From positions 48,721 through 112,720 of the forward strand of contig CAZVTA010000003.1 of NCBI GenBank assembly GCA_964629815.1: a stretch of DNA of 64,000 nucleotides, read 5' to 3'. The translations under genes and the position numbers were made by a program. Below are positions 15,362 through 44,582 of this stretch, piece after piece. Under the pieces are notes generated by a model. The model had not been told where the DNA came from and ran no database searches. It saw nothing but the letters and a program-made list of their open reading frames with translations. The stretch comes from an uncultured Candidatus Saccharibacteria bacterium (GTDB taxonomy: Bacteria; Patescibacteriota; Saccharimonadia; Saccharimonadales; AWTP1-31). The stretch's first letter is position 1; each line of letters begins with the position of its first letter.

Positions 15362-15436
15362 TGGTGACCTCAAGGGGAATCGAACCCCTATTGCCGGGAT
15401 GAAAACCCGGTGTCCTAACCGTTAGACGATGAGGCC
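15362..15436 (-). tRNA. tRNA-Glu (anticodon UUC), CCA encoded
   Basis: The reverse complement folds as a cloverleaf. Acceptor is GGCCTCA/TGAGGTC, the anticodon stem CCGGG/CCCGG carries loop TTTTCAT, the T-arm is AGGGG-TTCGATT-CCCCT, and the 3' end is ACCA. Confidence 0.93.
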
Positions 15437-28128: not shown

Positions 28129-28519
28129 TGGTGGAGCTGGCGGGTACTGCCCCCGCGTCCGCTGGTTTATCTTGATTAGTCTTCTACAGGTATAGGTCGT
28201 TTAGGGTTTTCTCGATCACTCGGCCGGTAAACGACCAAAAAGTCGAATAATCCAGTCCAAAGTCTTGGCGTCTAGTATGGACGGTACTAAACGAGCATCC
28301 AGATGATATGGCGTGCACTTACGCTATCTGAAGTCACATAAGGCACGGCTACCAATAAATTAGGCAGCAAATGCAAAGGCATTTTGACGTGCGTTAAGCA
28401 CGTTGTCTACCATTGCAGTAAGTGAATTTTTTGCATCTGTTCAGATGTACCTATAACGCTGATAAGCGACCTGCTGATCTAACCGATAAAGTCCGACGTC
28501 GAGCTTAAAATTCAGCCCC
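28129..28519 (-). ncRNA. ssrA: tmRNA (transfer-messenger RNA)
   Basis: The minus-strand 5' end is GGGGCTGAATTTTAAGCTCGACG and the 3' end is GGACGCGGGGGCAGTACCCGCCAGCTCCACCA. The acceptor stem has a G3-U pair. An internal tag frame ends ...NAFAFAA-TAA. Confidence 0.9.
28360..28416 (-). other. tmRNA tag-peptide reading frame
   Basis: GCA ATG GTA GAC AAC GTG CTT AAC GCA CGT CAA AAT GCC TTT GCA TTT GCT GCC TAA. The resume codon could be the first GCA (after the A6 run) or the internal GCA (giving ARQNAFAFAA). Confidence 0.6.
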
Positions 28520-40584: not shown

Positions 40585-41623
40585 ACAGACAGTTTTTGTT
40601 GGGCTGAGTGGGGGCGTGGATAGTTCAGTTACGGCTGCTCTGCTGAAAGAGCAGGGCTACAATGTTGTGGGGGTTTTCATGAAAAACTGGAGCAAAGATT
40701 TGCCCGGTTTTCCTTGTCCATGGAAAGAGGATTACCAAGACGCAAAACGTGTTGCTGTGCAGTTAGGGATACCGTTTAAAATGTTCGATTTTGAAAAGCA
40801 ATACCGAAGTAAAGTCGTAGACTATATGCTTGCAGAATATAAAGCGGGTCGAACTCCAAACCCAGACATTATGTGCAATCAAGAGATTAAGTTTAAGCTT
40901 TTCTTTGAAACTGCTATGAGCGAAGGCGCTGATTTGATTGCCACAGGGCATTACGCACGAACCAAAGACGGTAAGCTTAAGTCCGCGAAGGATACCAATA
41001 AAGACCAGACGTATTTTTTGTATCGTGTGAGTGAAGCTGCGCTTTGCAAAACACTATTTCCGCTCGGAGATTACACAAAGCCCGAAGTTCGAGAACTTGC
41101 CAAAAAGTTTGGCTTAGTTACCGCAACAAAAAAAGAAAGCATGGGCATATGCTTTGTCGGTAAGGTTGGTATAAAAGACTTTTTATTGCACGAACTTGGT
41201 CCTCAAAAACCGGGCAACATCGTGGACAATACGGGCAAGGTCATCGGCGTGCACGATGGAGCAATCTTTTATACCATTGGTCAACGTCAGGGACTAAATG
41301 TTGGGGGTGGCCGGCCACTGTATGTTACGCATAAGGATATGCAGCAGAATATCGTCTACGTAACACCTGTTTTAGATGACGTGCGACTGTGGACTAAAGA
41401 GCTCGTACTGCGGGATGTGCACTGGATCAATGGCGTACCGGCCAAAGGTAGCGCATGTCTTGTTCGGACGAGACACCGAGCGCCACTTGTAGGGGGTACG
41501 ATTCGTATGCAAAGATCACACGTCACGGTCGAACTGGATGACGAGATCCGCGCTATAACACCTGGCCAGTCTGCCGTACTGTATACCGAACAGCTAGTGT
41601 TGGGTGGCGGTATCATCTCCTAG
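40577..41623 (+). CDS. mnmA: tRNA-specific 2-thiouridylase
   Basis: PP-loop VGLSGGVDSSV plus NPDIMCN and the C-terminal barrel. It overlaps the desulfurase gene by 8 nt. Confidence 0.9.
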   Translation: MNKQTVFVGLSGGVDSSVTAALLKEQGYNVVGVFMKNWSKDLPGFPCPWKEDYQDAKRVAVQLGIPFKMFDFEKQYRSKVVDYMLAEYKAGRTPNPDIMCNQEIKFKLFFETAMSEGADLIATGHYARTKDGKLKSAKDTNKDQTYFLYRVSEAALCKTLFPLGDYTKPEVRELAKKFGLVTATKKESMGICFVGKVGIKDFLLHELGPQKPGNIVDNTGKVIGVHDGAIFYTIGQRQGLNVGGGRPLYVTHKDMQQNIVYVTPVLDDVRLWTKELVLRDVHWINGVPAKGSACLVRTRHRAPLVGGTIRMQRSHVTVELDDEIRAITPGQSAVLYTEQLVLGGGIIS

Positions 41624-41632
41624 TAATGCTTG

Positions 41633-42124
41633 TCAGGTGATGATTTTTTCGGGTTTAACAGTTGTGTCAATAGGGAGCGTGTGATCGTAGCCTATCTCTA
41701 CACTTCTGCCTATGATGCAGTTGCTGCCAATCTCACTACCCGTTAGGAGCGTGGCGCCCGTTTCGATTTCACATAAGTCCCCAACTTTTACACCGTGCTC
41801 GATACGTACCGCATCGCCAAGTTCGCAGCCTTCTCCAAGGACTACTCGTGATCCAATCAGGGAGTGCCTGCCAATTATGCAACCTGCTGCGATGGAGGTG
41901 TGCGGTCCGATGCGTTCGATATTATCAATATAGGTTTGTCGGGTCAGATCATTAACGGTTACGCTCCCAAGGGTTAGGAATACATTTGGCTGCACAGGTA
42001 CTGCCTCTGGTTGATATGCAGCAAGTAGCTCCTGTCTGTAACGTAGCTCTGGGCTAATGCAGCGTTCGACGATGTCTGTAATTGCGAATGTAAGGGCGTG
42101 TGGTGAGATGAAAAAATTTGACAT
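41633..42124 (-). CDS. hexapeptide-repeat (left-handed beta-helix) transferase-like protein
   Basis: Imperfect [LIV]-G-x4 hexads recur through the C-terminal 100 aa (IGRHSLIGSRVVLGEGCELGDAVRIEHGVKVGDLCEIETGATLLTGSEIGSNCIIG). Confidence 0.65.
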   Translation of the reverse strand: MSNFFISPHALTFAITDIVERCISPELRYRQELLAAYQPEAVPVQPNVFLTLGSVTVNDLTRQTYIDNIERIGPHTSIAAGCIIGRHSLIGSRVVLGEGCELGDAVRIEHGVKVGDLCEIETGATLLTGSEIGSNCIIGRSVEIGYDHTLPIDTTVKPEKIIT

Positions 42125-42153
42125 AAAAAAACCTCTCTTGTTACCAAGAAAGG
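42125..42153 (-). terminator. terminator/SD-sequestering hairpin abutting ATG 42124
   Basis: Minus strand: CCTTTCTTG-GTAA-CAAGAGAGG, then T7, then the ATG immediately. The only SD-like sequence (AGAGAGG) is the 3' arm. The G-U pair favours the minus strand. Confidence 0.6.
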
Positions 42154-42290
42154 ATAGCGAATAATCAATATCTTTCCCTGGCGGGCTAGATGGAGCACCA
42201 CATTACGGTGTAATAGGTTGCTGGCAGGTCGACGAGCTAGGACTCTCGCTGCACTCTGTATATTTTCAAATTGTTAATTGTTTCATCATA
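42154..42290 (-). promoter_or_regulatory. GC-rich structured leader or small RNA upstream of the transferase gene
   Basis: Three predicted minus-strand hairpins: GCAG-CGAG-aguccuag-CUCG-..-CUGC; AGCAACC-u-AUUAC-acc-GUAAU-gu-GGUGCU; AUCU-ag-CCC-gcca-GGG-aa-AGAU. No known class was recognised. Confidence 0.35.
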
Positions 42291-42316
42291 GCAAAAAAGA
42301 AGGGGTAAGTAAACAA

Positions 42317-42345
42317 TTGACACAAATTAAACATTATACTATAAT
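42317..42345 (+). promoter_or_regulatory. consensus sigma70-type promoter (leaderless mRNA)
   Basis: TTGACA (42317-42322), 17 nt, TATAAT (42340-42345), then 7 nt to ATG 42353. Confidence 0.6.
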
Positions 42346-42352
42346 AGTATTT

Positions 42353-42646
42353 ATGAATAATACAGAACATGGCAAAATTGATCATCGAGAAATAGATAGT
42401 TCTTTAGACGCGCAGAGTGGAATGACTACGAATCCAGAGATGAGGACTGCTATGAGTCCTGCGGCAGCAAATTTTTTAGGTTCTGTTGCTTTGAATGTAG
42501 TCGCGAGCGGTGTTGCATTATTTGAACGGATGTATGACGGTGTCTATTCGGCGAGTACTCCTCTTGCAATTGGATCTGGCTTACTTGGTCTTCGCGGTGC
42601 ATTTCTGCATTATAAAGATGTAGTAGCTAGTCGCTCGATACGTTAA
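42353..42646 (+). CDS. small hypothetical membrane protein
   Basis: I chose ATG 42353 because the consensus promoter lies inside the longer ORF (42278). It has two hydrophobic segments. Confidence 0.45.
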   Translation: MNNTEHGKIDHREIDSSLDAQSGMTTNPEMRTAMSPAAANFLGSVALNVVASGVALFERMYDGVYSASTPLAIGSGLLGLRGAFLHYKDVVASRSIR

Positions 42647-42689
42647 GCAAGTAGTTTATTTTTAGTACTACCTCTGTTAGAATGTGGCT

Positions 42690-44582
42690 ATGACTGCACA
42701 ACAAATCCGCAAAGCATACCTAGATTTCTTTAAAGATAAAGGCCACGTTATAGTTCCACGTGCATTATTGGTGCCATACAACGATCCGACCACCTTATTT
42801 ACGGGTAGCGGCATGCAACCACTTATACCGTACCTGCTAGGTGAGCCACACACAGATGGTACACGGCTGGTAGATAGCCAGACGTGTTTACGTGCACAAG
42901 ATATCGACGATATTGGCGATAATCGACACACTACTTTTTTTGAAATGTTAGGCAACTGGAGTCTGGGAGACTATTTTAAAAAAGACCAGCTTCCTTGGTT
43001 TTTTGGTTTTTTAATTGATACAGTTGGTTTAGATCCAAGTCGGATTTATGCAACTTGTTGCAGTGGCTTTCCTGAATTTGATGTTCCAAAAGATACGGAG
43101 AGTGCAGAAATATGGAAAGAGCTATTTGAATCAAAAGGCATAGATGCGAAACAAGTAGAGATTGGTTCTGAAGAGAACGGCTATAAAGTGGGCGAGCAAG
43201 ATGGCCGTATTTTCTTTTATGACGAAAAGAACTGGTGGAGTCGAAACGGGGCGCCCAGGGATGTGAAGGTAGGCGAACCATGCGGGCCAGATAGCGAAGT
43301 GTTTTATCTGTTTGATCAAATCGAACACGATACCTCGTATGGCGAAAAATGCCACCCAAACTGTGATTGTGGTCGGTATATGGAAATTGGCAATTCAGTT
43401 TTTATGGAATATATACGGACCGATAAGGGGTTCGAAAAATTGCCAAAGCAAAACGTAGACTTTGGCGGCGGGCTCGAACGTATAGCTGCTGCAGCACTCA
43501 ATAGCCCAGATGTATTCAAAATTAGTATAATGTGGCCCATTATCGAAAAGCTCGAGAAACTGAGTGGTAAAAATTATGATAGTCATACAAACAGCATGCG
43601 CGTTATTGCAGACCATCTCCGTGCGGCGACATTTTTAGCTGTTGATGGTGTAACGCCAAGCAATAAAGAGCAGGGGTATGTGATGCGTCGACTGGTTCGT
43701 CGAGCTATACGCTTTGCATTCGAGCTGGGAATTGAGCAAAACTTTGTGCAAGACGTGGTTCCGGTTATTGCAGATCTGTACCACGAAGACTTTCCAGAAG
43801 TTGCAGATAAACGCCAGGAAGTTATCGATGTACTGGTACGCGAAGAAAAAGCCTTTCGACAAACTATACGCAAAGGCATACACCAATTTAGTAAGTTTGC
43901 AGCCAATGGTTTAACGGGTGAAGAAATCTTTACTCTGTACGACACGTACGGCTTTCCTGTTGAACTGAGCGTGGAAGAGGCGTTCAAACAAGGAATTTCG
44001 GTTTCTGATACGTGGCAAAAAGAATTTGAGTCAAAAATGTCCGAACAACGTGCTCGTAGCCAAACCGCTGCAAAGGGAACGTTCAAGGGCGGTCTAGGTG
44101 GACAGACCTTGCAGCACAAAAAATACCATACCGCGACACACCTTATGTATCAGGCGCTACGAGATGTGCTTGGCGACCATGTAATCCAGCGTGGTAGCAA
44201 TATTACCGAAGAGCGTTTGCGGTTTGACTTTAGTCACCCCGAAAAAGTAACCCGCGAACAGCTCGATGAAGTTGAAGCAATAGTAAACCGCGAAATTGCC
44301 AAGGATTTACAGGTTAGTTGGAAAGAATATCCTACCAAAGAAGCTACTGGCCCATTGGGTGCGCTTGGTCAATTTGGTGATCGTTACGGCGAAACTGTAA
44401 AGGTCTATTCTATGAAAGACCCTCAATCGCCAGAGAAAGAGCGTCCATTTAGCTTCGAGATTTGCGGCGGCCCACATGTTGATCACACCCTGCAGCTTTT
44501 TGAAGACGGTAAGAAATTCAAAATCCTCAAAGAAGAAGCCAGCAGCGCTGGTGTTCGAAGAATTAAAGCGGTACTTGTATAG
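42690..44582 (+). CDS. alaS: alanyl-tRNA synthetase (short form lacking the C-terminal C-Ala domain)
   Basis: IRKAYLDFFKDKGH and catalytic core motifs, plus editing-domain motifs HTATHLM and CGGPHV. About 630 aa. ATG 42690 lies 6 nt after TAGAAT; GTG 42684 abuts it. Confidence 0.9.
   Translation: MTAQQIRKAYLDFFKDKGHVIVPRALLVPYNDPTTLFTGSGMQPLIPYLLGEPHTDGTRLVDSQTCLRAQDIDDIGDNRHTTFFEMLGNWSLGDYFKKDQLPWFFGFLIDTVGLDPSRIYATCCSGFPEFDVPKDTESAEIWKELFESKGIDAKQVEIGSEENGYKVGEQDGRIFFYDEKNWWSRNGAPRDVKVGEPCGPDSEVFYLFDQIEHDTSYGEKCHPNCDCGRYMEIGNSVFMEYIRTDKGFEKLPKQNVDFGGGLERIAAAALNSPDVFKISIMWPIIEKLEKLSGKNYDSHTNSMRVIADHLRAATFLAVDGVTPSNKEQGYVMRRLVRRAIRFAFELGIEQNFVQDVVPVIADLYHEDFPEVADKRQEVIDVLVREEKAFRQTIRKGIHQFSKFAANGLTGEEIFTLYDTYGFPVELSVEEAFKQGISVSDTWQKEFESKMSEQRARSQTAAKGTFKGGLGGQTLQHKKYHTATHLMYQALRDVLGDHVIQRGSNITEERLRFDFSHPEKVTREQLDEVEAIVNREIAKDLQVSWKEYPTKEATGPLGALGQFGDRYGETVKVYSMKDPQSPEKERPFSFEICGGPHVDHTLQLFEDGKKFKILKEEASSAGVRRIKAVLV

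Follow-up and report, generated by a model that had tools for sequence, protein, structure and literature searches.

A probable SAM-I riboswitch upstream of an uncharacterised left-handed beta-helix gene in a Candidatus Saccharibacteria genome

The stretch analysed here, 64,000 nucleotides (nt) of DNA from an uncultured Candidatus Saccharibacteria bacterium (the window), contains on its minus strand a structured leader (42125-42316) that directly precedes a small gene of the left-handed beta-helix (LbH) family. Judged from its sequence, this leader belongs to a known RNA class, the SAM-I (S-box) riboswitches, of which it is a slightly divergent member, and each of the SAM-I features that we examined is present. 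We consider it very likely that the leader turns off the LbH-family gene when S-adenosylmethionine (SAM) is plentiful, where SAM binding and the direction of the switch are what we infer. The proposal of a first-pass annotation that a cis-regulatory riboswitch lies upstream of a minus-strand hexapeptide (LbH) gene was thereby supported, both by the SAM-I match and by the Pfam Hexapep match of the open reading frame (ORF; E 1e-14).

A sensitive scan of 801 nt (41900-42700) with the Rfam model RF00162 returned a full-length match on the minus strand at 42165-42266 (model positions 1-108; 41.0 bits; E 8.7e-8, corresponding to E 2.1e-8 per genome), for which the curated gathering cut-off is 44.4 bits. 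The same aptamer was found with a lineage-specific covariance model, termed R1, which was built from the 21 above-threshold SAM-I elements of relatives and from which the LbH-linked window copy had been left out; R1 scored the window copy at 91.2 bits (E 3.4e-25), as its sole match in the window. An unrecognised cis-regulatory RNA had initially been one of two readings of the leader, a view that these scores overturn, and the Rfam search proposed at that stage did return a known family that explains the structure, albeit below threshold. The three consecutive hairpins described at 42290-42154 exist and represent P2, P3 and P4 of SAM-I, but the upper bound of 42290 lies too far upstream, as it takes in a -10-like hexamer (42290-42285) and an unpaired 5' stretch (42284-42267). 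As to the statement that the region is richer in GC than neighbouring spacers, the aptamer has 50% against 23% for the remaining spacer (42267-42352), but the flagged interval as a whole (40.6%) does not reach the mean of the window (45.8%).

In the alignments to both covariance models, RF00162 and R1, the four-way junction is complete, with all of P1, P2, P3 and P4 formed. P1 is made of five A-U pairs (42264-42260 with 42171-42167), and the U-A pairs adjoining the junction are among those present. P2 spans 42254-42223 (42254 and 42252-42249 with 42227-42223), followed inwards by P2b (42245-42243 with 42236-42234); P3 extends over 42222-42194, and P4 (42190-42173) has three G-C pairs and one outer pair. 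Within P2, an internal loop reads CGA on the 5' and GUCGAC on the 3' strand, where the consensus has gGA and uaUGAA, so that its letters provide G and A on both strands; the GUCGAC strand also occurs in relatives. A pseudoknot of four Watson-Crick pairs joins CUAG in the P2 loop (42240-42237) to CUAG in J3/4 (42189-42186). The conserved core is present at the upper-case positions of the model, namely AGAG in J1/2, GCAACC and GGUGC in P3, and AGAUA in P1. From crystal structures, we take AGAG, GCAACC/GGUGC and the junction-side U-A pairs of P1 to be the SAM contacts, and we assume that P1 is stabilised in a ligand-dependent manner.

When the 21 relatives' elements were aligned with MAFFT and folded with RNAalifold, P2 and P3 were recovered, whereas P1, P4 and the pseudoknot were not. 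Therefore, the SAM-I pairing was set by hand on well-aligned columns in building R1. Among the 28 full-length rows found with R1 (66-104 bits) the window copy is mid-range, and the remaining two rows represent one and the same decayed copy (L017:219-302 in genome G019, identical DNA to L030:1501-1584), which is without P3 and scores 36.3 bits with R1 and 22.9 bits with the Rfam model. This decayed copy is situated about 1.2 kb upstream of an intact metK leader in the same genome.

In a structural alignment of 28 distinct lineage sequences, fitted to the model, 88.7% of the cells are paired, compared with 36-38% in controls whose 3' partners were slid by one to three columns, and double-sided changes are seen in 20 of the 32 pairs. 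The pseudoknot is paired in 99.1% of the cells, three of its four pairs having changed on both sides. P2, P2b and P3a reach 99-100% and P4 94.5%, while P1 keeps only its four to five inner pairs. The six genome-derived LbH-linked leaders, taken alone, give the same picture (88.0% of cells paired against 31-38% in the slid controls, six pairs changed on both sides).

The window genome (G000; 814 kb on three contigs, 99.7% complete) holds exactly two RF00162 matches, one in the LbH leader and one in the leader of metK. In related genomes, an RF00162 match at E <= 1 was found in 25 of 41 and a match above the cut-off in 20 of 41. A MetK homologue follows at 17 of 30 SAM-I loci according to BLASTP, and additionally at L074 and L076; other genes found behind SAM-I elements encode HTS/MetA (L028, L023), a ThiS-family protein (L022) and proteins without a Pfam match. 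The 331-aa ORF of L016, at first labelled 'MetE-like' by eye, has no Pfam match and the label was dropped. The metK leader of the window genome (L001:1501-1601, minus strand; 50.7 bits with RF00162) belongs to the same class as the LbH leader, has the same platform of hairpin, ribosome-binding sequence, U7 and AUG, and lies directly upstream of the 326-aa metK. The two leaders differ in that they are 69.3% identical over aligned columns, show compensatory changes in P2 and carry different pseudoknot sequences, CUAG/CUAG in the LbH leader and CUGA/UCAG in the metK leader. The window leader is nearest to the LbH-linked leader of genome G493 (84.8%) and is therefore not a recent copy of its own metK leader. 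The metK gene itself (L001:466-1446, minus strand) is of a short form which shares 73-78% identity with its counterparts in G015, G032 and G005, whereas the 370-aa form carried by most relatives is only some 40% identical; CUGA/UCAG is found in the metK leaders of the window genome, G015 and G032, and the G005 leader has the common CUAG/CUAG.

The linkage of the aptamer to the LbH gene is not confined to the window. In a sample of 400 genomes of the order, five further full-length members of the LbH family were found (G443, G493, G500, G636, G494), and a SAM-I element is detected by R1 directly upstream and on the same strand in all five cases (70.8-95.0 bits). Two metagenome loci, L082 and L083, also carry the element (84.7 and 86.6 bits with R1). 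In total, it is found at eight of the eight LbH-family loci with upstream DNA, from at least four taxonomic families, while none of seven loci with matches to LbH repeats only has an R1 match upstream. The comparison of upstream regions of LbH genes that had been recommended for this leader came out in favour of a conserved element, and the pair counts described above show double-sided changes. With the Rfam model, five of the seven other LbH-linked leaders score at or above 44.4 bits (L067 56.5, L071 49.6, L070 44.5, L082 55.9 and L083 46.6), L068 falls below at 42.8 bits, and L069 was not listed at E <= 0.01. The aptamer of L069 (L069:1264-1462, from G500) contains a 99-nt insertion in the P3 loop and scores 70.8 bits with R1. 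Across these genomes the linkage of the LbH family to SAM-I is conserved and would add an uncharacterised gene to the SAM regulon.

Downstream of the aptamer, the minus strand reads CCUUUCUUG (42153-42145), GUAA (42144-42141), CAAGAGAGG (42140-42132), U7 (42131-42125) and AUG (42124-42122). The hairpin with its U-run (42125-42153; -12.3 kcal/mol) has a stem of nine pairs, including one U-G wobble (42150/42135). The sole Shine-Dalgarno (SD)-like string, AGAGAGG (42132-42138), is located wholly within the 3' arm, 7 nt 5' of AUG; the equivalent arm in relatives is GAAAGGA(U). In all these respects (GUAA-capped 9-bp hairpin, SD-like 3' arm, U7 abutting AUG, G-U pair in the stem) the first-pass annotation had described the sequence exactly. 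Its reading of this last hairpin as both terminator-like and SD-sequestering also agrees with the relatives, since the same design, with the SD in the 3' arm, a U-run after it and the start codon no more than 6 nt further on, recurs in 30 of 34 lineage leaders (the misses being L004, L013, L017 and L070). In L070 (G636), an in-frame AUU follows the U-run where other leaders have AUG. The 5' arm in the lineage is almost everywhere AUCCUUUC, which is complementary to the 3' end of the aptamer, GGAAAGAU, as well as to the SD arm, GAAAGGAU. Two database proteins, P0027 and P0037, begin with MTSFLV.PKGFF, which is a translation of the terminator hairpin; these N-termini are probably over-extended gene calls.

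Contigs from two other studies provide strain variants of the leader. The differences listed within the aptamer and terminator, at read depths below 5 and each recurring in both runs, are at 42143 and 42208 only. Both are in hairpin loops; the first converts the GUAA loop to GCAA, by which the GNRA type is retained, and the second is in the loop of P3.

A competing helix was computed for 42145-42180, in which 42180-42165 (the 3' strands of P4, J4/1 and P1) pair with 42160-42145. When the RNA is folded only as far as the terminator loop, as a nascent transcript would be, it adopts this predicted anti-terminator or anti-sequestor helix at -10.9 kcal/mol, which takes in the 5' arm of the terminator. 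As whole conformers, aptamer plus terminator amounts to -27.2 and the anti-terminator form to -25.5 kcal/mol, calculated with no ligand or tertiary term. According to these folding models, the hairpin is terminator and SD sequestor in one and is mutually exclusive with a helix using the 3' strand of P1, which is the classical OFF logic of S-box leaders.

In the proposed mechanism, transcription would start near 42278 and the first ≈ 110 nt would fold into the SAM-I aptamer with its four-way junction. With SAM bound, P1 and P4 would be locked and the CCUUUCUUG strand would be free to pair with CAAGAGAGG; the terminator hairpin and U7 would then end transcription just 5' of AUG, and in any read-through RNA this stem would hide the ribosome-binding site. 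In the absence of SAM, CCUUUCUUG would be engaged by pairing with the 3' strands of P4 and P1, no terminator would form, the SD would be free and the LbH protein would be made. SAM binding, switch direction, start site and the respective shares of termination and translational control are what this scheme predicts.

No convincing minus-strand promoter had been recognised previously. However, a promoter-like site with 9 of 12 consensus matches is predicted at 42285-42313 (TTTACT and TATGAT spaced by 17 nt, with TG before the -10 hexamer), and in five of six LbH-linked leaders the distance from the end of a -10-like hexamer to aptamer position 1 is 18-23 nt. The sequence predicts a transcription start near 42278, at the 5' end of the conserved string ATTAACAATTTG (42267-42278, minus strand), which contains TTAACAA at 42277-42271, just 5' of P1. 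In 28 of the 34 lineage SAM-I leaders TTAACAA, usually as GTTAACAAYTTAA, is found exactly, at a constant location no more than 26 nt upstream of P1, regardless of the downstream gene. This string is outside the RF00162 model and probably represents the first bases of the transcript.

Several observations weigh against the assignment as a functional SAM-I switch. The RF00162 score is 3.4 bits short of the gathering cut-off and the element is consequently missed by a default Rfam scan; P1 has just its five A-U pairs, and pair 8 of the model as well as its three outermost pairs are left open, as in most relatives. The low score can be ascribed to this short P1 together with the 3-bp P4. Furthermore, classical S-box genes act in sulfur, methionine or SAM metabolism, to which the regulated gene is not known to be connected. 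As to folding, the minimum free energy structure of the full-length leader retains the terminator in every case, and hence the ON state depends on co-transcriptional kinetics. The hairpin is the sole terminator-like site in 41500-42800 according to a terminator consensus scan, but shuffled sequences yield 1.1 ± 1.1 such sites per 1.3 kb, and therefore the terminator hairpin alone is not beyond chance. The folding z-score of a 206-nt stretch is modest (-1.90; 5 of 200 shuffles fold equally well). The case for more than chance rests on the covariance-model matches and the relatives, not on folding energy. The pair counts, in turn, were made on model-fitted alignments, which favours structure; nonetheless, both the slid controls and the pairs changed on both sides argue for a real covariation signal.

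One alternative concerns the ligand of the aptamer, and the genomic setting bears on it. Five of the genomes with the cassette of aptamer and LbH gene (G000, G443, G493, G636 and G494) were searched for SAM and methionine genes. None of the five has a match to HTS or Meth_synt_2, and PF01053 matched only weakly and in part, in G493 (31.9 bits) and G000 (23.1 bits); a route of methionine biosynthesis is not recognisable in any of them. No SAM synthetase match (PF02773, PF02772 or the archaeal PF01941) was found in G493 (97% complete) or in G494 (98%, one contig); G493 is a draft genome, for which such absence is not proof. RF00162 matches the G494 genome once, at the LbH-linked element, and in G493 the LbH-linked element is the only SAM-I seen in the DNA searched. 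Retention of the element in these two genomes, combined with a target that is not a classical S-box gene, would be compatible with a SAM-I fold that recognises an altered ligand, such as S-adenosylhomocysteine or another SAM-derived or methionine-related compound. We regard this as very unlikely, as all the Rfam-conserved core strings are present and the LbH-linked aptamers do not separate from the metK-linked ones, the identity to the window copy being 57-85% across both. Moreover, lack of SAM synthetase does not preclude uptake and sensing of SAM, as is established for some obligate symbionts. A SAM-I riboswitch responding to SAM itself is the preferred reading, and SAM sensing in these genomes probably reports host supply.

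A further alternative is that the leader is a decaying, non-functional SAM-I relic which no longer binds SAM and whose hairpin is a constitutive attenuator or irrelevant. The score below the Rfam gathering cut-off, the short P1 made entirely of A-U pairs and the existence in the lineage of decayed copies such as that of L017 are all in keeping with this. However, the window copy has intact helices, kink-turn loop and pseudoknot and obtains a mid-range score with the lineage model, the short P1 is a lineage-wide trait shared by metK leaders, the listed strain differences are confined to loops, and the element is kept at all eight LbH-family loci with upstream DNA, from at least four taxonomic families. 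Hence, a relic is most unlikely, and a functional SAM-I switch is the reading pursued below.

The regulated gene (41633-42124, minus strand) encodes a protein of 163 amino acids (aa) and its start codon abuts the U-run. An AlphaFold model obtained with a 23-row alignment (pLDDT 95.5) shows two helices (residues 10-22 and 25-37) followed by a beta-helix up to the C-terminus, with regular two-residue strands of a left-handed beta-helix from about residue 54 to 163. No NCBIfam model exceeds its cut-off for this protein. Out of 196 candidates from a word-indexed protein search, four had E <= 0.001, these being the query and three further, weak hits with E between 7e-5 and 9e-4. No match was found in 25 other genomes of the window's family in a search at 1e-10; a pattern scan of contigs gave 401 matched stretches, of which three were confirmed, all distant LbH proteins; and a 400-genome sample of the phylum contained repeat-level matches only and no other full-length member. 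An exhaustive HMMER search identified full-length relatives of 165-200 aa with 30-41% identity, the family being visible only through such a search combined with a dense sample of the order. In the alignment of 23 sequences (27-40% identity), near-invariant residues are C22, L27, R30, L52, N68, I72, I78, G85 and D147, to which the N-terminal helices contribute C22, L27 and R30, the LbH body N68 and G85, and a C-terminal YD motif D147. One relative bears the NCBI name 'hypothetical protein [Candidatus Saccharibacteria bacterium]'.

Structure comparison with Foldseek returned generic LbH matches only (E >= 6e-5). With VIA-align, the N-acetyltransferases PerB, PglD and PglB came out on top (Z 20-21; root-mean-square deviation 0.9-1.3 Å over 110-111 residues), followed within 2-3 Z units by LpxA, LpxD, GlmU, DapH, gamma-carbonic anhydrases and non-catalytic LbH domains, the latter comprising eIF2B epsilon, the C-terminal domain of GMPPA/B and dynactin p27. 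A specific LbH subfamily could not be assigned, as neither program singled one out. A search of the family profile against the PDB matched LpxD/LpxA repeats only (to E 2e-20), and the neighbours in the ESM Atlas, which serve as a lead only, are generic standalone LbH clusters sharing at most 136 of 256 features. The protein has the left-handed beta-helix body in common with the PglD/PerB/PglB (NeuD) group, LpxA, LpxD and GlmU, the matches being to the repeats only; it has no Rossmann-like N-domain and instead two short helices with the conserved Cys and Arg. The His of an 'EHG' turn, a candidate equivalent of the catalytic His of PglD/PerB, is present in 15 of the 23 members (N in five, A in two, F in one, counted by eye). 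The protein belongs to a rare family without an assigned function. Our best guess, made with low confidence, is that it is an acyl-CoA-dependent transferase needed for acquiring or sparing SAM or methionine when these are scarce.

On the chromosome, the LbH gene is placed convergently to mnmA, and alaS diverges from the SAM-I leader; this order is seen in G000, G636, G494, G500, L082 and L083. In G493 and G443, mnmA is also next to the cassette, and these loci end before alaS could appear. LbH and mnmA are tail-to-tail with a 9-nt gap in G000 and with an 11-nt overlap to 4-nt gap in G636, G494 and G493, and another gene separates them in G443 and G500. The cassette was not found elsewhere in the window's own family, and no SAM-I remnant was found near mnmA at 25 other mnmA loci of that family; the mnmA-alaS spacer there (loci L033-L057) measures 33-44 nt in G005, G006 and G007, 117 nt in G011 and 370 to about 1300 nt in the others. 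The possibility that the LbH gene has replaced metK at a metK locus was rejected because no SAM-I locus of the relatives holds alaS or mnmA. Recent insertion of the cassette into the mnmA-alaS spacer is weakened by the same arrangement in G636, G494, G500 and the two metagenome contigs. An old cassette, retained in few lineages and repeatedly lost in most, is more likely.

The conserved tail-to-tail arrangement with mnmA raises the question of whether the RNA is the main output, either as a terminated leader of about 150 nt acting in trans or as SAM-controlled antisense read-through tuning the convergent mnmA. There are precedents in Firmicutes, where an S-box-controlled antisense RNA and trans-acting SAM riboswitch fragments occur. 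The independent sRNA of about 150 nt considered in the first-pass annotation would simply be the terminated leader, and nothing points to a function in trans. Since, in addition, the ORF is conserved as a protein (full-length alignment of 23 sequences, near-invariant residues, confident fold), the SD is built into the switch, which is meaningful only if translation matters, and another gene lies between LbH and mnmA in two genomes, RNA as the main output is most unlikely.

From the logic of the riboswitch it would follow that the LbH protein is wanted when SAM is low. We tentatively propose, as a possibility that we rate well below the riboswitch assignment itself, that the LbH family of about 170 aa is an unrecognised player in SAM and methionine handling by the ultra-small, host-dependent bacteria of this order. 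As the sole gene besides metK that is kept under SAM-I control, it might help to obtain, spare or recycle SAM or methionine from the host by way of a new acyl-transfer step, rather than in classical biosynthesis.

Other features of the window are noted for completeness. In a default Rfam scan only a tmRNA (28129-28519, minus strand, 60.5 bits) and a tRNA (15365-15436, minus strand, 63.9 bits) exceeded their gathering scores; further sub-threshold rows (snoRNAs, MicA, L10 leader, CRISPR-DR57) had E 0.05-9 and were taken as chance. Divergently from the leader, a perfect promoter (TTGACA and TATAAT spaced by 17 nt, 12 of 12 consensus matches) is present on the plus strand at 42317-42345, and the ATG of a 97-aa ORF (42353-42646, plus strand) is located 7 nt after its -10 hexamer, which suggests a leaderless mRNA. 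This ORF has no NCBIfam match and no tblastn match in the loci of relatives; the longer 122-aa frame (42278-42646, plus strand) has no Pfam match.

Compared with the SAM-I/S-box leaders of Bacillus and Clostridia (RF00162, clan CL00012; metK, metE, yitJ), the window leader has in common the four-way junction of P1-P4, the kink-turn-type loop in P2, the pseudoknot between the P2 loop and J3/4, the AGAG/GCAACC/GGUGC core and the OFF logic, with the 3' strand of P1 doubling as part of the anti-terminator. It differs in its five-pair A-U P1 and its P4 of three G-C pairs and one outer pair, in the score below the cut-off, in an internal loop with GUCGAC for the consensus UAUGAA, in the use of a single hairpin as terminator and SD sequestor with the U-run touching AUG, in the lineage-specific TTAACAA 5' of P1, and in its target, which is an LbH protein and not a recognised gene of Met, Cys or SAM metabolism. 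In a literature search made outside the subscription journals, neither an LbH gene under SAM control nor a natural SAM riboswitch from this lineage was found described. The novelty resides in the regulon member and its setting in very small genomes (about 0.8-1.1 Mb), some of them without a detectable SAM synthetase; the RNA class is known.

The near-miss at the default Rfam threshold indicates that riboswitches tend to escape curated cut-offs where genomes are divergent, AT-rich and reduced. The natural switch could serve as a native regulatory part in a group for which one article (PMC11665869) describes a lack of inducible expression tools and proposes riboswitches for this purpose. For the protein family, the conservation of a ligand-specific sensor ahead of a single uncharacterised family is a strong and testable functional clue, and knowing what the LbH protein does could bring to light a step by which these episymbionts manage their cofactors.

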